Shown: positions 9,229 through 64,000 of the stretch, one piece after another
How positions within the stretch are numbered: the first letter of the stretch is position 1
Layout of the letters: each line of letters starts with the position of its first letter
NCBI RefSeq assembly: GCF_032444005.1
Contig: NC_091288.1
Coordinates: forward strand, 203,546,001 to 203,610,000
Source of the DNA: Ranitomeya imitator
Lineage: Eukaryota
DNA: 64,000 nt
Direction: 5' to 3'
Program-made: the position numbers and the translations under genes
The notes under the pieces: generated by a model
The model's database searches: none
The model's input: the letters and a program-made list of their open reading frames with translations, nothing else
What the model was told of the DNA's origin: nothing

Positions 9229-9351
9229 TGCTTTTTCCCTTGGAGACCAGCCACTGCTGATAAGATTGCAGCGGTGCACAGCACCCTTGCCAAGGAGCAG
9301 AAAGCTATAAAAACTAAAAATCCTCCTTTCTTGGGAATAAAGAGGATTTTT

Positions 9352-11409: not shown

Positions 11410-11572
11410 TACATACAACTCAATTAAAGGGGTCCTGCAGGGAATTAAAGATGTAAACAGACACCAACTAAAAGGAGCTTGCTGATTGAGTATTTGGACC
11501 CCTTTAATAAGGAGGTGGCAGTTCTGGAGCATGACCTATATGGCAGGTGTATCCTGCAGCCCCCAGGATCTG

Positions 11573-11757
11573 ATCTCACAGTGTATCCCATCTCACAGTG
11601 TATCCCATCTCACAGTGTATCCCATCTCACAGTGTATCCCATCTCACAGTGTTTCCCATCTCACAGTGTATCCCATCTCACAGTGTATCCCATCTCACAG
11701 TGTATCCCATCTCACAGTGTATCCCATCTCACAGTGTATCCCATCTCACAGTGTATC
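11573..11757. repeat. 17-bp minisatellite (GTGTATCCCATCTCACA)n, about 11 copies
   Basis: Direct reading of the tandem units. Confidence 0.95.
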
Positions 11758-11759
11758 CC

Positions 11760-12250
11760 TCCGCCTGGGGACGCCTCACACACACTCTCGCCTGCATTAC
11801 CCGTGTCTCCTCCGCGCTGCTCTCTCCCGCTTCCTCCCGGTGCGGTGACGTCGCCGCTGGTCCCTCAGTTGTTTTGCTGTCGGCAGCACAGGAACAGGAA
11901 GCCGATCTTCCTCTCCAGCTCATGCGCGTCACCCGGCAGTCCGCCTGCTGCTGTGCGCAGGGTGCGTGCGTGTGCGCGGCGATCTCCATAGCAACAAAGG
12001 CCGCGAGACGAGTCCTTCCTCTACGCGCAGGCGCGGCCCGCCGGTCACACTGTCTTGACTGACACCGTGCACGCACGTACTGCGGCGCTGACGGTCACGC
12101 TCTCGCTCCGTCCTGTGTCCGTGCGTGGAGGGCACGTGCTTGTGTCCGCTGCGGATACTACAAACGCACCGTGTGAACTAAATAATAAATGGCCACTCTG
12201 TGTAGGGGAGAGGGCAGCACGCTCCATTTTGCTTGTGCGGCGTCCATATT
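11760..12250 (-). promoter_or_regulatory. CpG island, probable NAA60 promoter and first exon
   Basis: CpG-dense. CRE-like GTGACGTC near 11845, RFX X-box-like CTCCATAGCAAC near 11984-11995, NRF1-like CGCGCAGGCGCG near 12024. Minus-strand donor GG|GTAATG at about 11800. Confidence 0.6.
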
Positions 12251-23409: not shown

Positions 23410-24870
23410 GGAGACGAGGGGGCGCTCAGAGCTGCGGAGGAAGAGAGGTGAGTATTTTTTTTTGGGGGCTGCCTTATACTACAGGGTCTGCCTATGGGGG
23501 TACTGTCTTATACTTACAGGGTCTGCCTATAGGGGTACTGTCTTATATTACAGGGTCTGCCTATGGGGGTACTGTCTTATACTACAGGGTCTGCCTATAG
23601 GGGTACTATATTATACTACAGGGTCTGCCTACGGGGTACTGCCTTATACTACAAGGTCTGCTTATGGGGGTTCTGTCTTATACTTACAGGGTCTGCCTAT
23701 GGGGGTACTGTCTTATACTTCAGGGTCTGCCTATGGGGGTGCTGTATTATACTTACAGGGTCTGCCTACAGGGGTACTGTCTTATACTTCAGGGTCTGCC
23801 TATGGGGGTGCTGTATTATACTTACAGGATCTGCCTACGTGGTGCTGCCTTATACTACAGGAATACAAAAAGGAAATGGAGTTCTATACGGAGAACATTT
23901 AAAACAGCAATATTTATTAAAGAATCATTTTAAAATTTTCAACAGTAACAAAAATACAAAAGAAGGGAAGACCCTAGAAAATACACATCCAAGTCATAGG
24001 TACCTAAAGAACGTATGAAACATCATGGTATATCATCGTATATGTAACCATCAATGGTAGCGCACAATACTACGGTATATTCGCTGGCTCTCGTATGGAC
24101 AAGTGTCCTTCATGCATACCATTAGCAGAGAGACCAGTATATAAATGGCATATCAAGAATCAAATTTCTTACCCATGATGAAATGAAAGGCACCTAATGA
24201 CTCCGGAGAGCCCCCTGACGCGCGTTTCGCGTTGCTTTCTCAAAGAGGGAGACGAGGGGGCGCTCAGAGCTGCGGAGGAAGAGAGGTGAGTATTTTTTTT
24301 TGGGGGCTGCCTTATACTACAGGGTCTGCCTATGGGGGTACTGTCTTATACTTACAGGGTCTGCCTATAGGGGTACTGTCTTATATTACAGGGTCTGCCT
24401 ATGGGGGTACTGTCTTATACTACAGGGTCTGCCTATAGGGGTACTATATTATACTACAGGGTCTGCCTACGGGGTACTGCCTTATACTACAAGGTCTGCT
24501 TATGGGGGTTCTGTCTTATACTTACAGGGTCTGCCTATGGGGGTACTGTCTTATACTTCAGGGTCTGCCTATGGGGGTGCTGTATTATACTTACAGGGTC
24601 TGCCTACAGGGGTACTGTCTTATACTTCAGGGTCTGCCTATGGGGGTGCTGTATTATACTTACAGGATCTGCCTACGTGGTGCTGCCTTATACTACAGGG
24701 TCTGCCTATGGGGGTGCTGCCTTATACTACAGGATCTGCCTATGGGGTGCTGCCTTATACTACAGGATCTGCCTATGGGGTGCTGCCTTATAATACAGGG
24801 TCTGCCTATGGGGTACTGTTTTATACTACAGAGTCGAGTCTGCCTATGGGTGCTGCCTTGTGCTATAGAG
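23410..24870. repeat. 33-35-bp minisatellite with an exact 452-bp direct duplication (23410-23861 = 24248-24699)
   Basis: Units like GGGGTACTGTCTTATACTACAGGGTCTGCCTAT. The two blocks read identical at offset 838. Confidence 0.9.
23862..24247 (-). mobile_element. Penelope-like (pLTR/retrozyme-type) fragment
   Basis: Starts at a hammerhead-like motif (CCCT-CTTTGAGAAAGC-AAC-GC-GAAA-CGCGCG-TC-AGGG) and ends about 50 nt after AATAAA (23913-23918). Confidence 0.5.
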
Positions 24871-25300: not shown

Positions 25301-25792
25301 GGCCTCTTTCACACTTCCGTCTTTTTCCTCCCGTCGAAATCCGTCGATTTTTGAAAAAACAGGATCCTGCAAATTTTTCTGCAGGATCCTGCTTTTTTCC
25401 CATACACTTGTGTTAGCGACGAATTGTGATGGATGGCCATCCGTTTCATCCGTCATACACTGGATCTGTCGGAAAATAGCAGTCTGTCGTGCGGAGAAAA
25501 CATTCAGAGGAACGTTTTTTTTCTGCACGTCGGAAAATCGCTCGGCGACGGGTCCTGCGCTGTCCGTCGTTGGCTATAATGGAAGTCTATGGACACAGGA
25601 TCCGTCAAAAAAAAAAAATCTCTCTCTCTCTCTCGAATCTTATACCTGAAAATGCAGGCAGGAACTCCTTTGATGCATCCGTCATAACACTGGATGCGTT
25701 GCACACGTTTTCCACTATTTTCACAACATCCATCGATACGTCGCTTCACTGCATCATGACGCACCCCGACCGACAGAAGTGTGAAAGAAGCC
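25301..25792. mobile_element. PIF/Harbinger-type MITE
   Basis: TIR GGCCTCTTTCACACTT ... AAGTGTGAAAGAAGCC, TAA/TTA flanks. Confidence 0.75.
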
Positions 25793-25808
25793 TTATAGGG
25801 ACACGTAC

Positions 25809-26410
25809 GGCAGCAGCGGCTCAGTATTACGGTATCAGGGGCAGTAATAGGGTCACATATGGCAGCAGCGGCTCAGTATTGGGGTATCAGGGGCAGTAAT
25901 AGGGACACATATGGCAGCAGCGGCTCAGCATTGGAGTATCAGGGGCAGTAATAGGGACACATACGGCAGCAGCGGCTCAGTATTGGGGTATCAGGGGCAG
26001 TAATAGGGTCACATATGGCAGCAGCGGCTTAGTATTGGGGTATCAGGGGCAGTAATAGGGACACATATGGCAGCAGCGGCTCAGTATTGGGGTATCAGGG
26101 GCAGTAATAGGGTCACATACGGCAGCAGCGGCTCAGTATTGGGGTATCAGGGGCAGTAATAGGGAAACATATGGCAGCAGCGGCTCAGTATTGGGGAATC
26201 AGGGGCAGTAATAGGGTCACATACGGCAGCAGAGGCTCAGTATTGGGGTATCAGGTGCAGTAATAGGGTCACATACGGCAGCAGCAGCTCAGTATTGGGG
26301 TATCAGGTGCAGTAATAGGGTCACATACGGCAGCAGCAGCTCAGTATTGGGTATCAGGTGCAGTAATAGGGACACATACGGCAGCAGTGGCTCAGTATTG
26401 GGGTATCAGC
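25809..26410. repeat. 52-bp minisatellite, about 11.5 copies
   Basis: GGCAGCAGCGGCTCAGTATTGGGGTATCAGGGGCAGTAATAGGG(A/T)CACATA(T/C) units with period 52. Confidence 0.95.
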
Positions 26411-29400
26411 AGGATGAGGAGTTGGTGCAGGTTGGGAATAGATGGTGATGGCTGGAATGTGAGGAGAGAAATATATTTTTGTTGTATTCTCTGCAAACGA
26501 GTCCTGGCTGGAAGAAGTTGTCATGTCGGTCTGGGCCAGATGGAAAAGATGGGAATAGTGACTACTCCATCAGAAAGGACGTCAGCGGTTAGTCATTATC
26601 TGTAACTGTGCAGGGCTGGTATTTACCACTGACCATATGGCGGTAATATCCATGTTGGTCTTTATATAGAGATTATCTTCAGTAACAGCACGGTCATTTG
26701 CTGAGGTTCTCCTCCACTATTAGATCGCGTCACCCAGTTGTAATCAAGGTTACCTGGTTAAAGGCCTACTCAGAAGTTTCGCCCCTCCTGAACCAAAACC
26801 CTAGCTACACCTCTGGTCCCAGGAGCCATTTTCCAACACCACAACCCCAGGCTACATGTTTCTTGTGCTTCGGCGAGCCATCTATAACGTGCTCCCAAGG
26901 CTGCAGCGTCTCCCATCGAGCACATCTGAGACGTCATTGGACGGTGATGATTACACAGGAGCTGCCAGCAGCGGATCTTGATGATTTGCCCAAACGCTTT
27001 CAGGACACCAAAGCATTCCTCAGACGACCATTATTAACCTCAGTGATGGCCGCCAAGGCTGTAAGTACTGGGATTTTTTGAACGTGAATCATACTCCATA
27101 CTGAATAAATTGAGATGTTCTGAATATTATGTTTCCATGTTTTCAGCATTTGAACATCAATGAAGTCTCCATTCTGTGATTTCCATAATTCCAAAACTTT
27201 TCCTTCTTGGTGATGCAATTTCAATGTCTTGCTTTTTTTCCATATTGGGCCCTTAGTTAACATTTGGCGTAACATTGCCCTAATAGCCTCATACAATCCC
27301 CATAGAAATCCCACTGTCTGTGAGCCATGTATATTATGCACTATTATACTGACTGTAGAAATCCATCACATTCCTGAATCTATCACCATTATTGATTTGT
27401 CTGCTGTTGGCAGAGCGTGGAATTTCCATGGCGTCACGTTTTCTGAAATTATTACCTGGAAAGTGTCTCCTCAGTGAGGTGAAATGCCGGTGAAAAGAGG
27501 GAGCTCCTGTCCACAGACAGCCTACTGACGGGTGAGCACGGTGGGACCGTAGTTATGTCTTATAGTCCTAATTTGGGGTACAGAACTAAACACATCTACT
27601 AGGGATATGTAATGTTGCCAGTAGGGGGTATAAGTGAAAGTCAGGGGTCTGGTGGTGACCGCCCAAGAGAGGCATGAAAATGGGGCTAACACTCGGGTTG
27701 CAACTGCGGAAGTCAAGTTTTACAGAGGCACAAAGGAGTTTTCCATTATTTTGACAAAGTTTTTCTAGGAGAAGCCACTTCAAAAGGTCTTTTTTTCTAA
27801 AGCGGCTCATCCAGCGGCTTTGCCAAAGCATTTTTTTCTGTACTATCTACTATAGTGGAGAGCAAGTGGAAGCCGCCTGGAGATTGACCACGCTACGTCC
27901 TTTAAGGGGTTCATAGTTTACAAAACAAAAAAAACTGAATACGTGCACAGCAAGTTGTTTTTACATTGTTGTGCACTATGCTAATTTTTTGCTTTGGTTT
28001 CGAGTTGCTTTTTCAGGAGGATTTTCTCAGGAATCCGCCTGAAAAAGCAACTCGAAACCATCGTAAAAATACGTCACGCGCACATGCCCTATACCATAAA
28101 GAAAGAAGGGCTACTTACCACTTCAGTGGTCCAACACTCTAGCATTGCCACGTTGGTGGTCTCCGCCAGGACAGGAAGCAATTATGTAGTGTCCATTATT
28201 CACCTGAAGCTAAGGAAGCCAAAAGCGACGACGTCCCAACCCCATTATGGATCCAACCTATGTTTGCATGGATTTTTTTTCCTAGATACTCCACTGTCCT
28301 CTCACTTTCCAAAAATGGCCACAAAAGATATCTGAACTTTAATTAAATGGCCAATTTTTATTCCAATCCCGTTGTGAGCACCAGTGATGATACAAACAAT
28401 AAAAAATGCAAAAAAAAAAGTATGTCTATATACAGTAAGGGGATTATAAAAGCGACAGATTGATTATTGTCCCGTAACAATCCCTAGTGATGTAATAGCA
28501 TTGGTTGTCGCTGAATATCTGGGCGTATTGAGCAGAGGTGTGACGATGCTCCCAGATTCCATCATTAGGGCGGTAATACTTGTCATACTAGTAATATCTG
28601 TCTGCCAGAGCATTGTCCTCCTATACAGGTGTGCTCCGAACCGCAGAGCTGCCTGGAAGGGTGTACGGGGAGAGCAATAGCATCAACAATGATTAATAGC
28701 CAAGGATTTTTGTTGTGATGTGCCGGTGATTATCTAATCATGACATGTGCATAAATGACTGTCGCTCACAAGTATGATAAGTGCCAGGACATACCGATCG
28801 TCGTGCCCATACGTATCAGAATGATATGGCGGCTTTCTAGGTTTTGTTTACTTGCGCTCGCTTGAAAACCATGAGCACTTCCGCTATAAATTAGCGTGAC
28901 TAACCCTTTTGTGATTTCTCATGATCAAAAGCAAAGAAATAAAGAGACCCCCATCAAAAAATCACCCTATTTATATAATATTATAAAAAAAAATGATGTT
29001 AACCCTGCTGTTGTCTTCGGTCAAAAATGACCGACCTTGAACTTCAATATTCTTTAAAAATATTCAAGATGCGGCTCTGAAACCCGTGGCCGACCGACCC
29101 ATCCTCATTTAAGTCAATCAACCACAAGTTTCAGAACCGCATCTTGAACACCCCCAAAAATACCAAAGTTCAAAATCGGTCTCCCCAGACCGAAGATAAC
29201 AGCAGGGTTTTTAAAAGGGTAATTCTTATAATTGTGAATGGATAAGATCGCAAAGTGCTTGTAAAAGCAGCAACCTTGCATTGTACCTCTTATTAAAAAT
29301 TCACTCCGTTCTCAAGATCAGAAGGATTTTTAATTCTAAAGTTTACAGCTTATTGCCTAGGTTACCCGCCGCTTCTGCAGTCTATCAGTGGTGGCCGAGG

Positions 29401-33784: not shown

Positions 33785-34850
33785 TGTTCTACTACTGTCA
33801 CCAGAACTATCACTACTACTACTGCCACCTCCACCACCACTACTATCCCTACCACTGCTACAACTACTACTAATACTACTATCACTACCACCACCACTAC
33901 TATCCCTACCACTGCTACAACTACTACTAATACTACTATCACTACCACCACCACTACTATCCCTACCACTGCTACAACTACTACTACCACTACTAATACT
34001 ACTATCATTACTACTATCCCTACCACTGCTACAACTACTACTACTACTATCCCTATCACTATCCCTATCACTACAACTACTACTACTATCCCTATCACTA
34101 CTACCAGTACTACTATCCCTACCACTGCCCCTACCCCTGCAACTACTGATACTACCATCATCAGTACTAGTATCCCTCCATACCACTACTAATAATACAA
34201 TCACTGCTGCCACTACTACTATCCCTATCACTAATACTACCATCACTACAACTATTCCTACCACTAATAATAGTATCATCACTACTACTACTACCATCAT
34301 CAGTACTAGTATCCCTACCACTACAAATATTACCATACCAGTACTACTCAGTACTACTATACCTATCACTGCTACTACCCCTGCAACTACTACTACCAAC
34401 ATCAGTACTACTGTCCCTAAAACTACAAATACTACCATCACTACTACCATCAGTGCTACTATCCCTACCTCTACTTCTACCATCACTACTACTAGAACTA
34501 CTATTCCTGCCATTACTACTACCTTTCCACTACTAATACTATCATCACTACTACCAGTACTACTATCCCTACCTGTACTTCTACCATCACTACTACCAGT
34601 ACTACTATTCTTATTATTACAACTACCCTTTCCACTACTAATACTACCATCACTGCTACTATCCCTTCCTCTATTTCTACCATCACTACTACCAGTACTA
34701 TCCTTACCTCTACCATCACTACTACCAGTACTACTATTCTTATTATTACAACTACCCTTTCCACTACTAATACTACCATCACTGTTACTATCCCTTCCTC
34801 TATTTCTACCATCACTACTACTATCATTACTACACTCCCTACCACTTCTA
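33785..34850. repeat. Degenerate (ACT/ACC)n low-complexity tract with 54-bp sub-repeats
   Basis: Triplet-based tract whose register shifts near 34185 and 34520. Confidence 0.85.
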
Positions 34851-37036: not shown

Positions 37037-40000
37037 ATGCTGCGTTTGGTGATTGCGCTCATGGTCGCTTCCTGCACCGTCTCGGCGTTGAAAATCGGTG
37101 CATTTAACATTCAGGCCTTTGGGGACTCGAAAATAAATAATCCCGAAGTGTGCGCCATTATAATGAAGGTAAAGTGTTTTTCAAATATTTATACTAAATC
37201 TATACATAAAAAATTGAGGATTTAACGCTGAAAAATGATTAAAAAAGATAAAGATAAATTCTACTAAACTACATTAATGGAGAAAGACTTTAATGTGAAA
37301 ACAGGTTTCCAAGCTTCGGTAGATGAAGAAATGTGTTTGTTGCTGTGTCTATGCTTTGCGATAATTTCCAGCAACTTCTATGATTTCAGATATTGCAGCG
37401 CTATGATATAGTTCTGATCCAGGAAGTTCGGGACGCCGACCTCAGCGCAGTTACCACTATGATGACAGAACTGAATGGGTTAGACATTTTTTTACCATCT
37501 CTTACTCCTGTTTATTGCACCACTAGTCCTTCATATGAGTCCTATATCACGTCTCATGTCCAAAAAGGACAAATTACTAATGTTAAAGGTTACTTATCCC
37601 ACGCGTTTAATTTTTCAAAATGTTCAGTGTCTACTAAAGTCGATGGTGTTCATGCCCAACTGAATGTGGGCCACTTGGAAGCACAGCGGAGACTGCAGAA
37701 GGGCCTGGAAATCCCAAATGAGACAAATGTTAATATAAACACCCCTGTATAGGCCCCTTTACACATGTTGATAACCGTAGGAAGGTTTGGTGACAATCAT
37801 TGACCCGTCTAAACACTGAAATCGTACGAACACTTCATGACAATCATTGAACATGGCGGCGACCACCGGAATTGTATTAACGCTTATTATTATTATTATT
37901 ATTATTTATTTATATAGCACCATTGATTCCATGGTGCTGTACATGAGAAGGGGTTACATACAAGTTACAAATATCACATACAGTAAACAAACTAACAATG
38001 ACGGACTGATACAGAGGGGCGAGGACCCTGCCCTGGCTTACATTCTACAGGATTATGGGGAAGGAGACAGTAGGTTGAGGGTTGCAGGAGCTCCGGTGTT
38101 GGTGAGGCGGTAGCTCCGGTGTTGGTGAGGCGGTAGCTCCGGTGTTGGTGAGGCGGTAGCTCCGGTGTTGGTGAGGCAGTAGCTTCGATAGTGATGAGGC
38201 AGCAGCGGTGTCAGTGCAGGCTGTAGGCTTTCCTGAAGACTTGGTGACAATCATTGACCCGTCTAAACGTGGCAAACACCGGAATCGTATGAACACTTGG
38301 TGCCAATCACTGATCCATCTAAACATGGCAGCGACCACTGGAATGGTACGAACACTTGGTCGCAATCATTTACAAATCTAAACATGGCAACGACCACCAG
38401 AATGGCACGAACGCTTGGTGACAATCATTGACCCGTTTAAACTTGGCAGAGACAACCGGAATTGTACAAACGCTTCATGACAATCATTGACCCGTCTAAA
38501 CATGGCAACGACCACAGGAATCGTATGAATGGTTGGTCCCAATCACTGATCCATCTAAACATGGCAGCGACCACTGGAATGGTACAAACACTTGGTCCCA
38601 ATTAGGCTTGAGCGAAACGGATCGGACAAATTCAAAAGTCGCCGACTTTTGGCAAAGTCGGGTTTCATGAAACCCGAACCGATCCTAGTGTGGGATCGGC
38701 CATGCGGTCGGCGATCTTCGCGCCAAAGTCGCGTTTCGTATGATGCGTTTGGCGCCAATTTTTCAGCCAATGAAGGAGCGTGGGCAGAGTGATGACATAG
38801 TTCTTAGGGGCGTGGACGCCTATCGCCATCTTGTCGCTTGTGCGCTGTAGCGATTTGTGAGAGAGAGAGAAAAAAAATTTCCCATTGACTTTGCATTGGG
38901 TTTCGTGTTTCGGTCGATCCCCGACTTTTCGTTATAATCGGCCGATTTCACTTGACTCGACTTTTGAGATAGTCGGGTTTCGCGAAACCCGACTCGACCC
39001 TAAAAAAGTAAAAGTCGCTCAACCCTAGTCTCAATCATTTACAAATCTAACCATGGCAACGACCACACGAATTGTACGAATGGTTGGTGAGAATCATTGA
39101 CCGGTCTAAACATGGCAACGACCACCGGAATGGCACGAACGCTTGGTGAGAATCATTGACTGGTCTAAACATGGCAACGACCTCCGGAATGGCACGAACG
39201 CTTGGTGACAATCATTGACCGGTCTAAACGTGGCAGCGACCACCGGAATTGTATGAACGCTTGGTCCCAATCACTGATCCATCTAAACATGGCAGCAACC
39301 ACCAAAATTGTATTAACGCTTGGTCCCAATCGCTGATCCATCTAAACATGGCAGCGACCACCGGCTCATTCATCGACTAATTGAATTGTTCATTCTTGGT
39401 CTAAAAATTCCTCATATAATCGCCCCATACACGGTATATGGAAATATGCTACTGCCAACAACATGCAAAATCTACTTGTATCAAACAATGGAATTAACCA
39501 TCATTCATCCTTATCCGCTACCTGCCATCAAACCCAGGATTCTGGTTCTAGCTTTAAACAAAATGATTCCATTCACTTACAGCAAGCAGAAATATTTAAA
39601 ATGGTGGGGAACGGAAACACAAATACTGTATATAATGATATGCAATATATTATTGCTAATAAGTACAAACCTTTTGATTAAATTTCAGCGATTTGTCTGA
39701 ACCGACCTACTCCTATGTGGTCAGCGACACTCTTGGAAGAGACACTTATAAAGAGCGCTACCTGTTTGTCTACAGGTAAGAATCCTCAAACATTAATTAC
39801 TTTGTGTATAGCGCTAAACCTGTCCCTGTCATACATGGACAGCCATTTATCAGAAATGCCACCATGTAATACTACATTTTACCAGCGGGGGAAACGGCAA
39901 CCCCAACAAATCAGCTGCTTCCTGGGATTACCAGGAACAGGACCTGGGGAGATCAGCAGCTAATAAAAATGATAACCCCTTTAAAAGAAAAGGACACTCC

Positions 40001-43000: not shown

Positions 43001-46000
43001 CACAGCCAGCATCTGCCTTGGCATGGTGCAGGCTCAAGTCCTGAGCCCGCACCACGCACATAGGCCTGTTATTTCACGGACTATTATGTCATGTCGAGTA
43101 GCGGCTAAAGGGGTTGTTTGACCATTTAATATATATTTGCATAGATCCCAAATCGCACCACAGGGTTACAGGGACACATGGAAGCAAAAAAAAAAAAAAA
43201 GTTATACTAGAATCAGCGCCTGTAACTATTAATCATGGGATCACAGCTTCTTACGATTTAGTAGGAAAATTATTCCCCTTTAATTCTTTGTATTTTTATA
43301 GAACATTATTTTCTTGGGCGATTTCAATGCCGACTGCAGCTACGTCACGACCTCTGACTGGGACAGCATCCGCATGTACAGCAGTGGGGACTTCACATGG
43401 CTCATAGCGGATGATATCGACACCACCGTGGGCAAATCAAACTGTGCATACGACAGGTAAGAGCAAAGATACAGCGGATGATTAAACTTATGTAATCAAT
43501 GGGATGTGAAGGGGCAATAAAGCACCATTTTTTATAACTAGCTGAAGAACCCGGCATTGCCTGGGCATAGTAAATATCTGTGGTTACTAATAGCACCTCA
43601 CTTCTCTTATTTTCCCATCACACCTCTCATTTTCACCTCACACCTCTCATTTTCCCCTCAGTATATGTTTGTCATCTCCCTTATATATAGTATACACCTG
43701 TATGTCATCTCCTGTATATAGTATATACCTGTATGTCATCTCCCCTGTATATAGTATATAGCTGTATGTCATCTCCTCCTGTATATAGTATATACCTGTG
43801 TGTCATCTCCCCTGTATATACCTGTATGTCATCTCCTCCAGTATATAGTATATACCTGTGTGTAATCTGCTCCTGTATATAGTATATACATGTGTCATCT
43901 CTCCTGTATATACAGTCATGGCCAAAATTTTTGAGAATGACACCAAAATTATATTTTCACATGATCTGCTGCCCTCTGGTTTTTATTAGTGTTTGTCTGA
44001 TGTTTATATCACATACAGAAATATAATTGCAATCATATTATGAGTACCAATAGGTTATATTGACAGTTAGAATGAGTTAATGCAGCAAGTCAATATTTGC
44101 AGTGTTGCCCCTTCTTCTTCAAGACCTCTGCAATTCTCCCTGGCATGCTCTCAATCAACTTCTGGACCAAATCCTGACTGATAGCAGTCCATTCTTGCAT
44201 AATCAATGCTTGCATTTTGCCAGAATTTGTTGGTTTTTGTTTGTCCACCCGTCTCTTGATGATTGACCACAAGTTATCAATTGGATTAAGATCTGGGGAG
44301 TTTCCAGGCCATGGACCCAAAATCTCTATGTTTTGTTCCATGAGCCATTTAGTTATCACCTTTGCTTTATGGCAAGGTGCTCCATCATGCTGGAAAAGGC
44401 ATTGTTGGGCGCCAAACTGCTCTTAGACGGTTGGGAGAAGTTGCTCTTGGAGGACATTCTGGTACAATTCTTTATTCATGGCTGTGTTTTTAGGCAAGAC
44501 TGTGAGTGAGCCGATTCCCTTGGCTGAGAAGCAACCCCACACATGAATGGTTTCAGGATGCTTTACAGTTGGCATGAGACAAGACTGGTGGTAGCGCTCA
44601 CCTCTTCTTCTCCGAATAAGCTGTTTTCCAGATGTCCCAAACAATCGAAAAGGGGATTCATCAGAGAAAATGACTTTGCCCCAGTCCTCAGCAGTCCACT
44701 CCCTGTACCTTTTGCAGAATATCAGTCGGTCCCTGATGTTTTTTCTGGAGAGAAGTGGCTTCTTTGCTTCCCTCCTTGAAACCAGGCCTTATTTAAAGAG
44801 TCTCCGCCTCACAGTGCTTGCAGAAGCACTCACACCAGCCTGCTGCCATTCCTGAGCAAGCTCGCCACTGCTTGTAGTCCGATCCCGCAGCTGAAACAGT
44901 TTTAAGATACGGTCCTGGCGCTTGCTGGTCTTTCTTGGGCGCCCTGGAGCCTTTTTGACAACAATGGAAGCTCTCTCCTTGAAGTTCTTGATGATGCGAT
45001 AGATTGTTGACTGAGGTGCAATCTTTGTAGCTGCGATACTCTTCCCTGTTAGGCCATTTTTGTGCAGTGCAATGATGGCTGCATGTGTTTCTTTAGAGAT
45101 AACCATGGTTAACTGAAGAGAAACAATGATACCAAGCACCAGCCTCCTTTTAAAGTGTCCAGTGATGTCATTCTTACTTAATCATGACTGATTGATCGCC
45201 AGCCCTGTCCTCATCAACACCCACACCTGTGTTAATGGATCAATCACTAAAACGATGTTAGCTGCTCCTTTTAAGGCAGGACTGCAATGATGTTGAAATG
45301 TGCTTTGGGGGTTAAAGTTCATTTTCTGGGCAAATATTGACTTTGCAAGTACAGTAATTGCTGTTCAGCTGATCACTCTGACATTCAGGAGTATATGCAA
45401 ATTGCCATTAGAAAAAATGAAGCAGTAGACTTTGGAAAAATTAATATTTGTCTCATTCTCAAAATTTTTGTCCATGACTGTAGTATATATGTGTGTGTCA
45501 TCTCTCCTGTATATACGTGTGTCATCTTCTCCTGTATATAGTATATACCTGTATGTCATCTCCTCCTATATATAGTATATACCTGTGTGTAATCTGCTCC
45601 TGTATATAGTATATACATGTGTCATCTCTCCTGTATATAGTATATATGTGCGTGTCATCTCCTCTATATATAGTATATATCTGTATGTCATCTCCTCCTG
45701 TATTACACCTCATTCACACGTTATTTGGTCAGTATTTTTACCTCAGTATTTGTACGCTATATTGGCAGCCTGATGAATCCCCAGCCAACAGGAAGCCCTC
45801 CCCCTGGCTGTATATATTAGCTTAGGCTGGGTTCCCATTGCGTTATGGGACCGCGTTAAACGGACAGCGTTGCACGGCGAAATTAACGCCGTGCAACGCG
45901 GCCGTTAACGCGCCCATTCACGCTAATGGGAACGCGCTTCACTAGCGCGTGCCAAGTTCGGCACGCGCTAGCGACGCGCCGGTGATTCCTGGCGCGCTGC

Positions 46001-53930: not shown

Positions 53931-54530
53931 CCTGCTATACTTCATTTTCTTTGGTTATCTTTCAGTTCATGGGCTGTGTCAGAGATGGACTAATCAGCCA
54001 GCATTCATGATGTATCTTATTCCAACTTTTTCCAGATACATATGAAGCAGCTTATTTACACAAAACAAAAAAAAAAAACTCGTGTATAAAACACAAAAGT
54101 ATTGGCGATTATGACCCAAGAAAATGCTGAGATCATTCAGTAGCAGATTAGTATTTCACAACTGGAGTGCCCCCTCACAGGTACAAGTACCATCATGCAA
54201 AACACAGAACTCGTTTGCGAAAAGCATTAAGCTACTTACTGGTAGCGGCATTTTTCGGAGGCCCATGACAGCACTACGAGAGAGGGGATCCGCCCTTCAG
54301 GAACAGGAAACCTACAGATACAAAAGGGCGGTACCTCTCCCCATGCATCAGTTGTATATTAGAGCCTGAGAGGACTACCGCGGTTAGTAGCACACAAACA
54401 TACATTATATACAGTTTATGTCCAAAAATAATCAATCATAATGAACTATATACCACACGTGAGATCTATCTATCTCATTATATACATTATGGGAAGTGCA
54501 ACCCCCACGTGAATAGGGAGGGAACTAAGG

Positions 54531-54615
54531 GTGCTGTCATGGGCCTCCGAAAAATGCCGCTACCAGTAAGTAGCTTAATGCTTTATTCGGACTCCCATGA
54601 CAGCACTACGAGAGA
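54531..54615. repeat. DIRS internal complementary region (ICR)
   Basis: Reads as element 3' end + TTT (54582-54584) + element 5' start; identical to both termini. Confidence 0.93.
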
Positions 54616-54636
54616 ATTACAGAGATGTAAACTACC

Positions 54637-56065
54637 TTAGGGAGGGACTATAGCCTGTAGCACCCTTAACCCGAAGGTGAGATCAGAAGAGAACCCCAAG
54701 TCCAACCTATAGTGCTTGAAAAAGGTGGAAGGGGATGACCACGTAGCTGCCTTACATATCTGGTCGATGGAAACTCCAGATCTCTCAGCCCAGGATGCAG
54801 CCATGGCCCGAGTGGAATGTGCCCTCAGATTCTGCGGAGCTGGACCTCCACCTGCAGTATAAGCCAGAGAGATAGCCTCCCTAATCCACTTCGCTAGCGT
54901 GTACTTCGACACTAAGACCTTTCCTGGGACCTTGGAAAGATAGAAACAACGCCTCCTCTCTCTTCCAAGCATCAGTGACTGATATATATTCTAAGAGACA
55001 TCTCCTAACATCTAACGTATGGAGTAACTCCTCTTTGGAATTAGAAGGATTAGGGAGAAATGATGGTAGAACTATCTCCTGAGATCTATGAAATTCTGAG
55101 GCCACTTTTGGTAAGTAAGCTGGATCTGGTCTGAGGACTACCCTGTCCTGTAGAAACTCTGTATAGGGGGACAGCCTAGAAAGAGCCTGTATGTCTCCTA
55201 CCCTACGAGCAGATGTAATTGCCACCAAAAATGCTGTTTTGAGGGATAGTAATTTAAGTGAGGCTGAATGTAAAGGCTCAAACGGTTCTTTAGTCAAGGC
55301 TGAGAGGACTAGGTTAAGATCCCAAGGCATTGACCTATTCCTGTGTATAGGTCTGGATCTACTAGCTGCTTTGATGAACCTTGATACCCAATAATTACCA
55401 GCAATGTTGCAAGAAAATAAGGCCCCTAGGGCTGAGACTTGTACTTTTAGCGTACTCGTGGATAGATTTAGCTCTAGCCCTCTCTGCAGGAATTCTAGAA
55501 TCTGGTTGATTGGTAAACCCTCTTCGATATTAAAATTTGAAGAGGCCAGAAACTTCCTCCAAGTTCTAGAGTAGATCTTAGTTGTTATGAGTTTTCTACT
55601 CTTCATAAGGGTATCAATGAGATTTGGAGAAAATCCTCTGTTTTTTAACAGTGACCTTTCAAAGACCATGCCGTCAAATGTAGACCCTTCACTTGTGGAT
55701 GGTTGATCGGACCTTGATGAAGTAGGTCCGGGATGTCTGGCAGTACCCAGGGGTCTTCCACCGACATGGTCCTGAGCCAGGAGAACCAAGCCCTTCGGGG
55801 CCAGAACGGAGCGATCAGTATGATTCTCGCTTGATCCTCCCTTATCTTTCTGACCACCAGAGGCAACAGGTTTAGCGGGGGAAACGCATAAGCCAACCGG
55901 AAATCCCATCTGATCAGGAAGGCATCCACTACCAGCGGATATTCCCTGGGATTCAAGGAACAGAATTTTTTCGTTTTTCTGTTGTCCTTGTTGGCAAATA
56001 GGTCCACCTCTGGATGACCCCACCTGCGGACAATCTGGTTGAAGATTTTTGTGTTCAGAGACCAC
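54637..56065 (-). pseudogene. DIRS tyrosine recombinase, frameshifted near 54910
   Basis: TSARRVGD and, in the shifted frame, RAHSTR...WSS...TFFKHY (R-HxxR-Y tetrad). Confidence 0.9.
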
Positions 56066-57520
56066 TCTCCTTGTCTTAAGGTGTTTCGAAAGTCCGCCTT
56101 TATATTTTCCTTCCCTTTTATATGTACTGCTGCTAAAGATAGAAAATGATTTTCCGCTATCTGGAGCAGGCGGTCCGCTATTTCCATCAGGGACTCGGAG
56201 CGTGTTCCACCTTGGTGATTCACGTAGGCCACTGCCACCTGATTGTCGGAGAGGATTTTGACATGGTGACCCTGTAGATACACGAGGAGTTCCTTAATTG
56301 ATAATTCAATCGCCAACAACTCCTTTTGATTAGAAGAGGCTGATGTTTGGGGGTCCCATAGACCCTGGACTACCACGTCACCCATGTGTGCCCCCCACCC
56401 TGTGGGGCTGGCGTCCGTCGTAACTACCCGAGTCACTTGAGTCACCCAGGGAACTCCTGCTGACAGATTGTCTTCCCTTAGCCACCATCTAAGAGATGTC
56501 AGAACCTCTGGACTCAATGTCATCTGACCCTGCAAGGAACCCTGTAAGACTCTTGTCATAATTCAGTACGTCAAACTGTAAAGGTCTGGAGTGGAACTGG
56601 GCCCAACGGACGGCGGGAATACAGGAAGTTAGGGAACCTAACAAGGACATAGCCTGTCTAAGAGTCATGGTTGGTTCTTTAATTGCTTTTAATACCTGTT
56701 GTTGGATATGGCGCAGTTTATCAGTTGGAAGACAGCATTGTTGGGACTCGGAATCTAACAGCAGACCTAGGAATCTCTGGTTTTTTAGGGGTTGTAATCG
56801 GGATTTTTCATAATTCACGATCCAGCCCAGATTCTCTAGCTTAGATATAGCTGTTTTTACCTGAGCAAGGCAATGGTCTGCTGAGTTCCCAACTATCAGG
56901 AAATCATCCAGATAAGGGATTATGAGGATATCAGATTCACGTAAATGCGCCATGACCTCCGCAACTACTTTAGTGAATACTCGGGGAGACGTTGAGAGGC
57001 CGAAGGGAAGGGCTCTAAATTGAAAATGTCGAACAATACCCCCCATAGACACCGCCACACGTAGAAACCTCTGAAAGTTTTCATGGATAGGAACATGATA
57101 ATACGCATCTTTTAAGTCCACAACTACCATGAAGCAGTGTTTGAACAACATTTTAATTGCAGAGCTGATTGACTCCATTTTAAATGTGGCTTTAACCAGG
57201 TATTCATTCAGGGATTTAAGGTTAATGATAGTCCTAAATGATCTGTCTGGTTTCTGGATCAGAAAAAGGGGAGAGTAGAATCCACTCCCTCTTTCTGACT
57301 CTGGAACTTCAATCAGCACGTTTTTGAGGCATAAACTCACAACTTCTGCCTCCAAAGCCGTCTGTTCAATAGTGGAGGAACGTAAGGGGGTTAACATAAA
57401 TTTATCCCGAGGCCAGTGAATAAATTCTAATTTCAGACCTTCTGAAATAATACCTCGGACCCAGTCACTATTTGAGATGTTAGACCATGCGGAAGAGAAG
57501 GCTGACAATCTCCCTCCCAC
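55645..57520 (-). pseudogene. DIRS RT / RNase H / DAM-like methyltransferase ORF, frameshifted near 56550
   Basis: DLKDAYYH, LPFGL, YLDD, TTDAS, ELLAI, SDN, DLFA and YAFPP motifs. The two halves lie in different frames. Confidence 0.9.
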
Positions 57521-57532
57521 AGGGATCGCTAG

Positions 57533-58850
57533 TCATTGGTCCGGTTTCTTACGTTCTTTTGAGGAACGGCGGAACATGTAACCCGTACCTCTCCTGCGTC
57601 TATCCTCCCATCTAAAATTCTCTCTAGTGGGTGAGGATGCGCGCTTCCTTCCGCGACCAAATCTCCTCCTGTTGAATGGACGCCGATAAGAAGATGATGA
57701 CAAACTCGGGAATTTTTTCTTGTCATCTCCAGCCTTTTCAAGCAGGTCATCCAAGGTTGGCCCGAAGAGGTATTCCCCTTTGCATGGGATAGCGCATAAT
57801 TTGGACCTTGATTGAATGTCACCCGACCAACATTTCAACCACAGGGCTCTACGAGCCGCGTTGGAGAGTCCTGCTGCTCTGGCCGCCATCCTGACCGAAT
57901 CGACCGACGCGTCCGACAGGAAAGCCGCAGCATCTTGAATCACCGGAAGCGCACTTAGAATGGAACTTCTGGAAGCGCCTTCCTTAAGCTGGGATTCCAA
58001 CTGTTCCAGCCAGACCATTAGGGATCTGGCTGTACAAGTCGCAGCCACCGCTGGCCTCAACGATCCGGCTGCCATCTCCCAGGTACCTTTAAGGAAGGTA
58101 TCCGCCTTCCTGTCAAGGGGGTCTTTAAGGGATCCCATATCTTCGAAAGGTAATGCGGCCTTTTTTGATGCCTTTGCTACCGCAGCATCTAATTTAGGGG
58201 CCTTGTCCCAGGTATCCACAGTCGTATCCTCAAAGGGATATCTGCGTTTTAAGGCTGGTGGTAATGAGCCTTTCTTCTCCGGTTTCTTCCATTCCCGGAG
58301 AATCAGGTCTTGAATTTTATCATTCACCGGGAAGGACCTACGCTTCTTGTGTTCCAAACCACTGAACATTAGTTGCTGACGGGAAAGCGGAGTTTTAGGT
58401 TCTTCTAGGCCCATCGTACCTCTGACCGACTTAACTAATTTATCTACTCGGTCCAGAGGCAGACAGAATCGGCCAGATTCCTCTTCTGATGACGAGGAAG
58501 AGAGATTTGAGCCATAGGAACCTTCATCCTTATCTTCCTCTGATGAATCAGAGATCACCGAGGTTCTCTGTTTTGAACTCCCCGCCTGGGACATAGACCG
58601 CAGGGATTCCCTTACTTCTGTACGGATCATCTCACGCAGATTAGCCGTAGAAGCAGATTCTTCCGCTACCTAGGGGAGGACAATAAGGGTGATACCATCT
58701 ATCTAGCCTGATGTCACTCAACCCCTCCACTCCTGTAGACCTCACCGTCTGTTGTATACAGGAGGCGCATAATTTTTTAATATAAGAATCTGGTAACGGG
58801 ACTTCACACAGGGCACACTCCTTATGTTTCGACTTTGCACTTTTCTTTCC
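57533..58850 (-). CDS. DIRS gag-like ORF1, spliced: join(58850-58746, 58669-57533); first exon unresolved
   Basis: A 105-nt exon GKKSAKSKHKECALC...LCASCIQQT joins in frame to VAEESAS...MIRTEVRESL via a 76-nt GT-AG intron. Confidence 0.75.
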
Positions 58851-60382
58851 CTAAAATGACAAAGTATAAGGGGCCCGCGTCACTGAGTGAGCATTCACGT
58901 AGATCTCTTACCAGTGTACGCCAAAAAAGGTACCGGAACACGAGGGGGTTCTTTGCCAGTCGATGCTCTGGATCCCTGCTTGGACGAGCTTTTACGGCTG
59001 GACTGGTCACTTCTGGCATGCTCCTTCTCCGTGGCCCTTTTGTCGCACGTCCTCCGGCAACTGAAGCTGCCGCTCACCATCACTCTCCATGATGTGGATG
59101 TGACCAAAGGCAGAGCTCTATTCCCAGCTCCTGCTTAAATCCCCCTCAGATCCGGTCAGCAGGCTGCCTGGCGCCACTCCTATTGGTTCCGGCTGATGAG
59201 ACTACATCTGGGGGGTCAGCGCAGTGTGTGAGGAGACCGGCGTTCAGGATCGATGGGCGCCGCCATCTTGGATGAACTGCGCATGCGCAGTCACCCAGAG
59301 ACCGGAAACGCCTGCTGACTCCGCCCCCTCGACGTCACTGCACCGGAAACGCTCCAGCTAACGCTGAGAGCGATGCAGGACGCCGAAGAGCACGCAGCAG
59401 CGTTCCGGATAGCGTTCCCCTCCTGGCACCGCTACATCACCACCGTGCTGCACCACCACACCGAAGGAGCGATATACTTACCGGCGCCGGCGCTAACGGA
59501 GATCAGGAATCCTCTGGACTCTGCTCCCTGCTGTCTACATCACTGACGTGCAGTCCAGCCAGGACCACCGTGATGTCTTCCAGGAGCTTCCGCACCGGTC
59601 GAGGTAGGAGACCCCCCCGCTACCTGATTCGACCGGCCGGCCTGGGATCCATCTACGAGATTCATCTGTAGGATCCTGCCCCTCCAGGAATAGGAAACCA
59701 ACTGATGCATGGGGAGAGGTACCGCCCTTTTGTATCTGTAGGTTTCCTGTTCCTGAAGGGCGGATCCCCTCTCTCGTAGTGCTGTCATGGGAGTCCGAAT
59801 AAAATGAACCTGTGAAGGAGCCCTAGTGGGCTGCATTATGGATCTGTACATTTCTATAGCTTTCAAACTAACAGAAATAAGACTGATATGGACATTTCCA
59901 ATTTTTCTTCATTGTAATGACTAAGACATTTCAGAACTTAATCACAAAATATTAATTTTTTATTTAGTAAAAAGGTCAGAAAGTCTATTGACATGAAAAT
60001 GCCCAAATTGCTGCAGATTTAAAAATTATATTTTCTTGGAAAGTGGCAGGTAAAGAAGGCAGCACAAGACCACCCGTGCAGAAAGGTTGTGAGTAAGGAT
60101 GTTAGGGGTTTTAGAAACAGCTTTGCCGACTCCTGACTGACATACATTTTTTTTTTTAAGAAACCTTCTGTTCAGATGACCTAGAACAACGGCCCATCTT
60201 GATTATTTGGAGGGCTACGGTAAAAAATACAACAGGCGCACAATAGTGGCCCAGTGGACAGAAGAATTATACCACTCTGCCCCATTAAACACTATAACCA
60301 TTACCACAAGTGATAGGAGACCTCAACCTTTTCATTTCGATATATATGGTTTACTAAATCCAAGCATTAGCTCAGCCTGTGG

Positions 60383-60546: not shown

Positions 60547-61450
60547 CTGTGTGTGAGAAAAAACAAAAAATATATGTCATATGGACTGTTTCATGGTGAA
60601 AGACGGTCGGTCACATACATAAAATATGAACAGGAAAAAAATCCAGTCGCAGAATGGGATAGCCCATCATTGCACTACCATGATCCTGAGAATGAAGGTG
60701 CTGCAGTGCCAGTAACGCTCCTGAAAGCAGCCTCCTACCTCCTGGCATCCGTGGCTCATCTTTTGGTTAGCCGGCCTGGCGCAAGGTTGTCTTTGCAGTG
60801 TAACGCACATGTGACATCGCGTCAGGATGACTAATCAAAAGAGAAACTGTGGACTCCAGGAGGCAAGAGTATGTTCTCAGGGCTCCGTCCATCGACCACG
60901 GTATATTGGATTTGGCAAATGGACTGGGTCCTTCAGAATGATTCACACCAATTCTACTCAGAACCTGTAGTTTGGGGATTGGTGTGAGTGAAGGTATTAC
61001 TTAGTAAATGGCAAGTGCCTTTGTATGATACAGAGACTTCATTGTAGAGCAATATTATAATACCGGTTTTTACGTACCGGTAATAGGATTTTACGGAGCC
61101 ACGACAGCACCCCTACGAGAGAGGGGATCCGCCCACCTTCCGGACAGGAACCTACAGGATTTAAAGGGGCGGTCCCCCTCACCACTCCAGTTTGTGTTTC
61201 AGAGTATAAGGGACACCGCCATTGAGTTAGTACATAAACATATATACTTAAACATTACTAAATACCATCACCTTCTAAAGAGTGATTTTTAATAAGCACA
61301 CTTTCCCCAAAGGGTGCAGAAACCAGTGAATAACTACGGGGGGGAATGTGCGGGTGCTGTCGTGGCTCCGTAAAATCCTATTACCGGTACGTAAAAAACG
61401 GTTTTCCTATCGCCACGACAGCACCCCTACGAGAGATTTTCAAAGATCAA

Positions 61451-63316
61451 TCACCTGGGAGGGACTACAGCACTAAGTACTGTATGGCCAAAAACTAAAT
61501 TGGCCTCTGAAGATAAATCAAGACGATAATGTCTATAAAAGGTGGAAGGAGATGACCACGTTGCCGCCTTACATATTACGTCTATGGAGACGTCCGCTCT
61601 TTCCGTCCAGGATGAGGCCATGGCTCGAGTGGAGTGGGCCCTGATGCCATCTGGTGGTGTCTGGCCTTTAGCAGTATAAGCAAGATATATGGCATCTCTT
61701 ATCCATCTGGCGATAGACGCTTTAGTTACACTCGCCCCTTTCCTTGGATTCTGAAAGGAAATAAACAGAGCCCTACTCTGCCTCCATGGTTCTGTTTTGT
61801 GTAGGTACTCTAATAGAGTTCTTCTGACATCTAACTTGTGATATTTCTGCTCGTCAGCTGAATTCGGATTGTTACAGAAAGATGGTAAAATTATTTCTTG
61901 ACTTCTATGAAATTTGGAAGCTACTTTTGGTAGGTATGCTGGATCAGGTTTTAACACTACCCTGTCCTGAAAGACCATTAAATAAGGAGGGTCTATCGAC
62001 AAAGCTTGTAAGTCACTCACTCTCCTAGCAGAGGTTAGGGCTACTAGGAAGGCTGTTTTTAAGGTTAAATTTTTAATGGAGACAGAATCTATTGGCTCAA
62101 AGGGGGCTTCTGTTAAGGCGTCTAAAACCAAATTTAGATCCCATGGTGGTAATCTAGGAATATATACTGGGTTACTACGTTCAGTGGCCCTGATAAATCG
62201 GGAAACCCATCTATTTCCCGCCACATCACTGTTATATAACGCTCCCAAAGCTGATACTTGGACTCTAAGGGTATTTACCGCCAAGCCCAATTCTCGGCCC
62301 CTCTGTAAAAACTCCAGAATAGCCGGAATTGGGACCTTGCCAGAAAAGGGATTTTGGTAGAAGGCAAGGAACTTTTTCCAAGTTTTAGCATAGATTTTAG
62401 TGGTAACTTCTTTCCGGCTATTTAAAAGGGTAGATATGAGAGCTTCTGAAAACCCTCTTCTCCTCAATAACTCCCTCTCAAATTCCACGCCGTCAGATGC
62501 AGGGATTTCACATTGGGGTAACGGAATGGACCCTGAGAAAGAAGCTCCGGGCTGGTCGGCAGTACCCAGGGGTCGGACACAGACATTGCCCTGAGTAACG
62601 AGAACCATGCCCTCCTGGGCCAAAAGGGGGCAATCAGGATCACTCTCGCCCTGTCCTCCCTGATCTTCCTGAGGACTAACGGGATCAGACACATTGGAGG
62701 GAACGCGTAAGCTAGAGGAAAATTCCAGTGTATTTGAAGGGAGTCTATTATACAGGGCTTGTCCGCCACCCGAAGAGAAGCGAACTTCCTGGTCTGCCTG
62801 TTCTCTCTCGTTGCGAATAGATCGATAACGGGCAATCCCCACAGGTCCACTATCTGTCTGAACACCCGTCGATCTAGAACCCATTCTCCCTGACGTAGAG
62901 AATGACGGCTGAGGTAATCTGCCTCTGTGTTGAGCTCTCCCCGAATGTGCACAGCTGATAGAGAGCGAAAGTGGGCTTCGGCTATTTCGAGTATGTCTGT
63001 GGCGGTGTTCATTAGGGATCTTGACCTTGTACCCCCTTGATGGTTGAGATACGCCACTACTGTTGTGTTGTCTGTCTGGACTCTTACATGTGAATCCTGC
63101 AGAGATGGAAGCAACCTGAGTAAGGCCTTCTTCACTGCCGTGAGCTCTTTCCAGTTTGAGGACTCTTGAGCCTCTAAGAGAGACCATTGCCCTTGAGTCC
63201 AGACATCTCCTATGTGAGCTCCCCAACCTATCGGACTGGCATCGGTTGTGACCGTGTTGTCTGGTACTACACTCCAGCGTACTCCTTTCCCTAAATGTCT
63301 TCTGTTTAACCACCAT
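61451..63316 (-). CDS. DIRS tyrosine recombinase, open frame
   Basis: TSARRVSD, RAHSTR and TFYRHY motifs in one 621-codon frame. Confidence 0.9.
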   Translation of the reverse strand: MVVKQKTFRERSTLECSTRQHGHNRCQSDRLGSSHRRCLDSRAMVSLRGSRVLKLERAHGSEEGLTQVASISAGFTCKSPDRQHNSSGVSQPSRGYKVKIPNEHRHRHTRNSRSPLSLSISCAHSGRAQHRGRLPQPSFSTSGRMGSRSTGVQTDSGPVGIARYRSIRNEREQADQEVRFSSGGGQALYNRLPSNTLEFSSSLRVPSNVSDPVSPQEDQGGQGESDPDCPLLAQEGMVLVTQGNVCVRPLGTADQPGASFSGSIPLPQCEIPASDGVEFERELLRRRGFSEALISTLLNSRKEVTTKIYAKTWKKFLAFYQNPFSGKVPIPAILEFLQRGRELGLAVNTLRVQVSALGALYNSDVAGNRWVSRFIRATERSNPVYIPRLPPWDLNLVLDALTEAPFEPIDSVSIKNLTLKTAFLVALTSARRVSDLQALSIDPPYLMVFQDRVVLKPDPAYLPKVASKFHRSQEIILPSFCNNPNSADEQKYHKLDVRRTLLEYLHKTEPWRQSRALFISFQNPRKGASVTKASIARWIRDAIYLAYTAKGQTPPDGIRAHSTRAMASSWTERADVSIDVICKAATWSSPSTFYRHYRLDLSSEANLVFGHTVLSAVVPPR

Positions 63317-63999
63317 CTCAGACTGTGTAGAGTGGTGGTGGAGAGCCTGAGTCTTCCGCCTAATTGCCCTTGAAGACTTCTCTCTGTATCCAAGACTTGG
63401 GCCTGTAACACTCGAGTGTGGAATTCAGCCCACTGGACGGCTGGTATGCAGGACGTTAGAGATCCCAGAAGGGACATAGCGTCTCTTAAAGTCAGATCTG
63501 GCTTCCTTGTTACCGTACTGATTACAACCCTCTGCTTTTTCTCCTCCGGAAGGAAACATTGTTGCACTTCCGAATCCAGCAGAATACCTAGGAAAGTCTG
63601 AGTTGTTGATGGGTCGAGTCTTGACTTCTCCATATTGACTATCCAACCCAAGTCCTGTAAGGAAGATATGACATGATTTAGGCGAGTACTACACTGGCCA
63701 AAGGAATTTCCTACTACCAGGAAGTCATCCAAGTAGGGTATAATTAACGTATCCTGTTCCCTGACATAGGCCATTACTTCTGCCATGACTTTAGTAAACA
63801 CCCTTGGTGCCATAGATAGACCAAAGGGCATTGCAGCAAACTGAAAGTGTCTGACCTGGTCGTTTAAGCGCACCGCCATTCTGAGGAATTGTTGATGATC
63901 CAGGTGAATGGGCAGATGGTAATACGCATCTTTTAAATCCAGGCCTGTCATATAACATCTGGGAAAGAGAAGATTAGTTGCCGTTTTAATAGATTCCAT
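62464..63999 (-). CDS. DIRS RT / RNase H / methyltransferase, 5'-partial, open frame
   Basis: DLKDAYYH, MPFGL, YLDD, TTDAS, ADYLSR, DLFA and YAFPP motifs. Confidence 0.92.
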   Translation of the reverse strand: MESIKTATNLLFPRCYMTGLDLKDAYYHLPIHLDHQQFLRMAVRLNDQVRHFQFAAMPFGLSMAPRVFTKVMAEVMAYVREQDTLIIPYLDDFLVVGNSFGQCSTRLNHVISSLQDLGWIVNMEKSRLDPSTTQTFLGILLDSEVQQCFLPEEKKQRVVISTVTRKPDLTLRDAMSLLGSLTSCIPAVQWAEFHTRVLQAQVLDTERSLQGQLGGRLRLSTTTLHSLRWWLNRRHLGKGVRWSVVPDNTVTTDASPIGWGAHIGDVWTQGQWSLLEAQESSNWKELTAVKKALLRLLPSLQDSHVRVQTDNTTVVAYLNHQGGTRSRSLMNTATDILEIAEAHFRSLSAVHIRGELNTEADYLSRHSLRQGEWVLDRRVFRQIVDLWGLPVIDLFATRENRQTRKFASLRVADKPCIIDSLQIHWNFPLAYAFPPMCLIPLVLRKIREDRARVILIAPFWPRRAWFSLLRAMSVSDPWVLPTSPELLSQGPFRYPNVKSLHLTAWNLRGSY

Positions 64000-64000
64000 C

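Follow-up and report, generated by a model that had tools for sequence, protein, structure and literature searches.

Two spliceosomal introns in gag of a DIRS1-like retrotransposon of Ranitomeya imitator and their retention in genomic copies

The DIRS1-like element and its surroundings

The window, i.e., the whole stretch of 64,000 nucleotides of Ranitomeya imitator contig NC_091288.1 analysed here, carries a whole DIRS1-like (tyrosine-recombinase, YR) retrotransposon on the reverse strand at 54221..59803, which is assigned to family A and delimited by alignment ends and by the geometry of its inverted terminal repeats (ITRs) together with its internal complementary region (ICR). The copy comprises 5.58 kb in a genome of 5.96 Gb, and the closest named proteins derive from dendrobatid frogs. 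Copy-to-copy alignments start at 59803 or a few bases from it, beyond which the flanks differ, and end at 54221. The left ITR (59699..59803, reverse strand, as for all features of the element given below) has 104 nt and is 97% complementary to 54251-54354. The right ITR together with a terminal extension occupies 54221..54354. The two ITRs are non-identical, and their outer ends differ. The ICR (54531..54615) is complementary to the left and right termini placed next to each other, with 54531-54584 being 100% complementary to 54221-54274 and the adjoining part matching the left end.

The largest gag exon, exon 3 (57533..58669), comprises 378 codons and encodes a LAP2alpha-like domain (Pfam PF11560, E 1.8e-19). 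Directly after the gag stop and in frame with it, the reverse transcriptase (RT) frame is situated at 56489..57532 (RVT_1, E 1.2e-21); it is broken from the RNase H part onwards in the window copy and forms a single frame of 630 aa in the sibling L145. An RNase H and adenine-methyltransferase-like part occupies 55645..56562 (RT_RNaseH, E 1.6e-6; Dam, E 0.025, a Pfam match below the cut-off, though at the expected place after RNase H). The putative tyrosine recombinase frame (54637..56293) occurs here in two pieces, the ORFs 56293-54881 and 54990-54637, of which only the first was scanned and gave no Pfam match. The recombinase frame of the neighbouring family B element matches Phage_integrase with an E-value of 2.3e-4, which is below the cut-off, and is 77% alike to that of family A over 128 nt. 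Compared to its siblings, the window copy thus has frame breaks in exon 1 (see below), pol, and the recombinase. Family A is young: out of 991 candidates, 40 matches were scored, all of which extend across the two gag introns with an identity of 99-100% in this region.

With ITRs, an ICR, RT and RNase H, and a LAP2alpha-like ORF1, the element plan is that of a DIRS1-like YR retrotransposon of the vertebrate clade. The element has no env, integrase, or LTRs; likewise, a GIY-YIG endonuclease, pseudo-LTRs, and a single ORF, as in Penelope-like elements, were not found, and both architecture and Pfam matches are of the DIRS type. In family A and its sister subfamily A', the gag stop is embedded in TGA-CTAG (window 57535-57529), followed by RT in frame. 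This context, which we take to be a leaky read-through motif, suggests that a Gag-Pol fusion may be formed by read-through in A/A'. Families B and D differ at the gag stop, and family D has its recombinase frame directly behind this stop and in frame with it.

The same plan of ITRs, ICR, LAP2alpha-like gag, RT/RH/MT, and YR is described for the vertebrate DIRS1-like elements DIRS_XT/XL of Xenopus in the available parts of Gazolla et al. (PMC9210276) and Abascal et al. (PMC4495291). In these parts gag is treated as a single ORF, whereas in the element described here the start codon and a four-cysteine knuckle reside on upstream exons. The main texts of PMC9210276, PMC3266345, and PMC3783388 contain neither "intron" nor "splic", and that of PMC4495291 does not contain "intron". 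In the open literature covered, no account of introns in vertebrate DIRS gag was found; Repbase, subscription papers, and supplements lay outside this scope and may mention them.

A second DIRS element, belonging to family B, is located at 61059..64000 on the reverse strand and extends past the window end to ~66240; it contains gag intron 1 and lacks intron 2. The elements of families A and B are 1.3 kb apart in the same orientation (window 61059-64000; L031 to ~5740). Exons of a host enoyl-CoA hydratase/isomerase gene are situated at 60547-60383 of the window and at 6075-6395 of L031, the latter with an ECH_1 Pfam match. These two exons flank the family B element, which shares their orientation, and the apparent stop codon of the gene precedes the start of family A by ~580 nt. 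Pieces of two DIRS families are also present in L087, and a clustering of insertions is possible. Further features of the window are a Tc1-like transposase fragment (44789-45181) with inverted ends at 43911-43958 and 45435-45482, several minisatellite arrays with units of 17, 33-34, 52, 59, and 109 nt along with an exact tandem duplication of 838 nt (23410-24547, 25691-26418, 8523-9346, 11517-11810, and 38218-39422), an inverted repeat of 318 nt whose arms are separated by 27 nt (16468-17130), and a strongly G-poor simple-repeat tract at 33800-34800 with a GC skew of -0.8.

Exons, introns, and splice sites of gag

Exon 1 (58934..59090) provides the start codon and encodes a Ser/Arg/Lys-rich N-terminus that is predicted to be disordered. 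It has 156 nt in 28 of 29 other copies, where 52 open codons run in phase 0 to the donor at 58933, and 157 nt in L002 as well as in the window copy. In the latter, the frame from 59090 stops after 27 codons, and an ATG at 59080 opens 49 codons that reach the donor in phase 0. Intron 1 (58851..58933) is an 83-nt GT-AG intron in phase 0 with a weak donor, and exact genomic deletions of it occur. Exon 2 (58746..58850) has 105 nt in phase 0 and encodes a basic patch followed by a knuckle (GKKSAKSKHKE-CxxC-x12-CxxC-IQQT). Intron 2 (58670..58745), with 76 nt, GT-AG ends, and phase 0, ends directly before the 378-codon gag frame starting at 58669 and is, among the families examined, restricted to the A/A' clade. 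The original prediction had placed a 105-nt phase-0 exon at 58850-58746, between an acceptor ending at 58851 and a donor from 58745, and these coordinates all hold; also confirmed are its joining of the knuckle exon to gag in frame by a 76-nt intron, the two acceptor TAGs as in-frame stops, and the lack of a Met in exon 2.

Both introns agree with the U2 type, since they have GT-AG ends and a pyrimidine tract and their removal restores the frame. Reading through unspliced RNA from the ATG at 59090 in other copies leads to a stop after 64 codons, and in 7 out of 7 copies taken from A, A', B, C, and D the unspliced exon 1 frame stops after 53-88 codons, before the knuckle. Due to this early stop, unspliced RNA cannot encode the knuckle-bearing Gag.

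Of the donor sites noted originally, 58933 and 58911 as candidate upstream donors and 59481 as another strong donor, only 58933 is the one used in intron-less copies. The site at 58906..58911, just inside intron 1, is stronger than the used donor, and A, A', B, C, and D all have a corresponding inner GTRAG, located 19-23 nt into intron 1. As donor of intron 1 it is ruled out, because all five intron-less copies are cut at the site matching 58933; no copy or contig spliced from 58911 was found. The third site, a strong 5' splice donor-like motif in the leader (59476..59481, G/GTAAG), is present in A, A', C, and D at a distance of 297-322 nt from the left terminus. For a possible role as donor of a leader intron, no acceptor, deletion, or joint was detected in 105 loci (some of them fetched twice) and in the contigs. 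An unusually stable fold of the intron RNA was observed in none of nine sequences (z -1.1 to +1.7).

The four-cysteine knuckle of exon 2, which would bind zinc, is conserved in NCBI frog gene models. It corresponds to no Pfam family; only a weak DZR_2 match (E 0.099) was obtained, on P0012. In a relative's predicted model, pLDDT is below 50 for most of residues 1-71 and ~80-87 over residues 71-100, the knuckle part. The model matches PDB 2v0x (E 2.8e-9), and the fold search matched LAP2alpha only. The same three exons are joined in the NCBI model P0066 of the sister subfamily, which, as an automated model, represents agreement and not proof. Many frog gene models named "LAP2 alpha-like" are probably these DIRS elements. 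In the older models P0016, P0034, P0039, and P0043, host genes without relation to DIRS are spliced to its intron-1 acceptor. Judged from these models, the acceptor may act as an exon trap and as a route to LAP2alpha-type exonisation, or the joints may be a gene-finder artefact.

Exact loss and retention of the introns among copies

Genome-wide counts were obtained with exon-end motifs and cover only copies of the same clade that match these motifs exactly. For intron 1, 308 copies have the donor and 5 have exon 2 directly joined (5/313 exact losses), after four of nine pattern matches (L138-L141) had been dropped beforehand as unrelated DNA. Intron 2 is kept in 487 copies and precisely joined in 3 (3/490); here, two of six matches (L129 and L132) were dropped as unrelated DNA, and one (L130/L144), which keeps the intron with a variant donor, was scored as retained. 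New insertions therefore keep each intron at ~98-99%. The intron-less copies that had been proposed as a check do exist as rare exact losses, and nearly all copies keep the introns.

All intron-1 losses (L126, L135, L136, L137, and L143) belong to subfamily A', which has ~80% nucleotide identity to the window family; with a narrow motif for the window family, no intron-1 loss was found genome-wide. The intron-2 losses are L125, L145, and L146, of which L145 belongs to the window's own family. All eight intron-less copies begin at the left terminus, and the four that were fetched whole (L125, L126, L145, and L146) reach the right terminus too. None of the eight lacks both introns.

Reverse transcription of a spliced RNA is expected to leave an exact genomic deletion of the intron, and such deletions exist for both stretches. 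We thus regard it as confirmed that two real introns, excisable at exact GT-AG borders, interrupt gag, as had been predicted. In principle, the splice signals might have arisen by chance, with Gag translated from the first exon-3 Met and ordinary microhomology events accounting for the deletions. Several NCBI models do start in exon 3 (P0020 and P0021), the junctions share 1-3 letters, and one imprecise deletion runs across intron 2 (L127). This explanation is already contradicted by the exact GT-AG deletions, of which twelve occur in three families that differ in flanking sequence; furthermore, families B-E have a knuckle that continues directly into the remainder of Gag, and codon positions 1-2 show conservation in exons 1 and 2 (7-14% divergence). 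We consider it extremely improbable.

According to a tree of exon 3 comprising 38 copies, at least four intron-1 and at least three intron-2 losses occurred separately, and loss in a single clade is rejected for each intron (p-AU 7e-32 and 5e-72); the short copy L118 and families B-E were left out of the trees throughout. The sole possible pair consists of L126 and L136, one of which may be the parent of the other (support 85/73). Since losses recur without spreading, a role of the introns in cis is suggested. Occasionally, intron-less copies may nevertheless propagate, considering this pair and the losses in family D.

In family B, the same donor context precedes an 82-nt intron at the same codon, and the knuckle runs straight into Gag. 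Intron 1 has 106 nt in family C and 78 nt in family D, again at the same codon. As Gag identity among families A-D is 47-56% and all four share this position, intron 1 must be old. None of the families B, C, D, and E has intron 2. The prediction that gag needs at least two introns therefore applies to the A/A' clade and fails for families B, C, and D, which carry intron 1 alone. The comparison is unrooted, so that intron 2 would have been either gained in A/A' or lost elsewhere. In family E (L094-L098), the gag intron comprises 91 nt and lies upstream of the common position by a few codons; its donor is strong, and there is no inner donor. From its position, an independent gain or sliding is possible. 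Intron-less copies were found in two (C and D) of the three other families with intron 1. In family D, three of 89 listed copies (L100-L102) lack exactly the 78-nt intron and are complete with open gag, pol, and recombinase frames; these losses share two sites, and one origin is possible. In family C, one of 93 listed copies (L108) is without the intron, and the deletion is exact.

The ITRs suggest that intron-keeping copies passed through RNA as well. Among 19 right ends considered, the ITR was readable in 12. In the intron-keeping copies L011, L016, and L025, a variant of the left ITR recurs in the right ITR and not in the ICR, and one such mirrored variant is private to L025. Of the ten copies that have a variant in the left ITR and whose right ITR is readable, seven show no mirroring, which is what mutation at a later time would produce. 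Mirroring fits the model of DIRS reverse transcription in which one end is regenerated from the other, as outlined in the available part of PMC7192593, and it weakens a DNA-only route. By such a route, most copies would arise by recombinase-mediated excision and reinsertion or by duplication, and only the rare intron-less copies via RNA. In favour of this route, the element has a putative tyrosine recombinase frame, and Cryptons are known as YR transposons that are DNA-based (accessible passages of PMC3212892). Apart from the three mirrored copies, the maintenance of the RT-RH frame and of the ICR as well as the termini of the intron-less copies, which are the same as in the rest, speak against it, and we regard the DNA route as very unlikely.

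Splicing state and the fate of the element RNA

The RNA data consist of assembled contigs of runs that were guessed to be RNA, and joints without GT-AG ends were treated as deletion variants or related families. For the window copy, no splice joint was present in any of four runs, and several unspliced contigs cross both introns. As to the junctions originally proposed for checking, the equivalent of joint 58746/58669 was found for the sister copy L110 in three of four runs, from two studies, and an intron-1 joint was found in none of the seven runs that cover the window copy and L110 contigs. In the intron-2 joint, the shorter side amounts to just 27 letters, and the joint could also stem from genomic copies without the intron. 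Hence it is supportive of splicing and not decisive.

The intron interiors had been expected to evolve faster, and the opposite was observed. Between A and nine A' copies, the introns diverge by 12-21%, four-fold sites of exon 3 by 54-57%, and codon positions 1-2 of exon 3 by 9-11%. Judged from this comparison, the introns evolve about three times slower than four-fold sites, and both are under sequence constraint. The non-neutral interior argues for an added function and not against the status as introns. Passive persistence could also be considered, i.e., real introns that are slowly spliced in a few master copies and that loss at ~1% has not yet removed, with no function in cis. Intron loss is indeed rare, few copies of any kind found lineages, the successful families B, C, and D do without intron 2, and conservation is expected to be raised in short introns that largely consist of splice signal. 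However, the introns are conserved over nearly their whole length, all four families retain the inner donor, and intron 1 has remained at one position despite a Gag identity of 47-56%. This makes passive persistence appear unlikely.

In our judgment, it is quite probable that the element sorts its RNA by splicing state, with unspliced RNA as the replication template and spliced RNA producing Gag in trans. Unspliced RNA would be reverse-transcribed and integrated, and spliced RNA would be translated into a Gag that acts in trans. The weak donor and the stronger donor-like site just inside may keep splicing inefficient, and template RNA may be shielded from the spliceosome by bound factors, Gag or others, close to the 5' end. 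In addition, the introns may carry a cis signal for packaging, export, or expression, so that intron-less copies would be poor parents. A similar competition is discussed for DIRS-1 of Dictyostelium: in the available part of PMC7192593, an engineered intron near the 5' end is partly kept in the cDNA, and partial retention is ascribed to competition between splicing and retrotransposition factors. Replication from unspliced RNA combined with Gag from spliced mRNA had been proposed originally and stands as the best reading, with neither a fully spliced mRNA nor the protein observed. What speaks against such a sorting of template and message is that intron 2 is not universally needed, since families B, C, and D are successful in its absence.

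As a variant of the preferred explanation and compatible with sorting by splicing state, two promoters may be active, with a short spliced gag mRNA starting at an internal promoter at ~59337-59135 and a separate full-length RNA from the left end avoiding splicing. Nine ATGs are situated between the left end and 59090, which would make the full-length RNA a poor Gag message. A cluster of promoter-like motifs, presumably CRE, NRF1-, YY1-, CCAAT-, and TATA-like (59135..59337), precedes the gag ATG as a putative internal promoter. Moreover, the lack of double-loss copies is expected if fully spliced RNA without the left end cannot be a template, but double loss would be very rare anyway with two rates of ~1%. 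Assembled contigs cannot reveal transcription starts, and a 100-nt part of the motif cluster is missing in the subfamily copy L128. We therefore consider two promoters conceivable, though somewhat improbable.

Returning to the sorting by splicing state, a further step would be that the obligatory gag introns constitute an RNA-fate switch, in which intron sequence marks the genome, splicing removes the mark and licenses Gag translation, and intron-less offspring are sterile. This extension is tentative, and we would not expect it to hold in full. In retroviruses, Gag is translated from unspliced RNA, which also is the genome. The element described here is alike with regard to the balance of spliced and unspliced RNA and differs in that Gag is not made from unspliced RNA; the originally proposed likeness to a complex retrovirus is thus turned into its inverse, as the unspliced frame ends ahead of the knuckle. 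Retrotransposition is expected to strip introns, and laboratory reporters depend on this stripping. Spliceosomal introns inside retrotransposons, including YR elements, have been reported for fungal Ngaro/DIRS and plant Ogre elements; these are fungal or plant cases and are not known to represent an obligatorily split vertebrate gag with measured retention.

According to the available passages of Oberlin et al. (PMC5580714), the plant Ty1/Copia element EVD dedicates a spliced RNA to Gag and the unspliced full-length RNA to the rest. One alternative intron centred on the protease gives rise to a short Gag RNA that raises Gag output, and U1 snRNP also blocks premature termination. In contrast to EVD, Gag of the present element is unreadable unless introns inside its coding sequence are removed. 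Penelope-like elements keep an intron after retrotransposition (PMC8557442, in part), as observed here, and differ in RT class, integration, and the location of the studied introns in the 5' UTR. Deletion of a 75-bp Penelope intron nearly abolished reporter expression, and selection for keeping it was proposed (PMC2377424, in part). The available passages of both papers hold no estimate of intron loss rate.

With regard to the biology of the family, the picture of vertebrate DIRS Gag is corrected by an N-terminal basic region and a four-cysteine knuckle that are missed in a one-ORF reading. An abundant vertebrate retrotransposon keeps coding introns at ~98-99%, and the genome itself records the rare failures. 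This provides a measurable system for how and why some retroelements keep introns, the significance of which is stated as unknown for Penelope-like elements in the available part of PMC8557442. If the RNA-fate switch were true, each RNA would be either message or template, and Gag would act purely in trans. The life cycle of this retroelement would then be inverse to that of retroviruses and would contain a built-in natural retrotransposition reporter.
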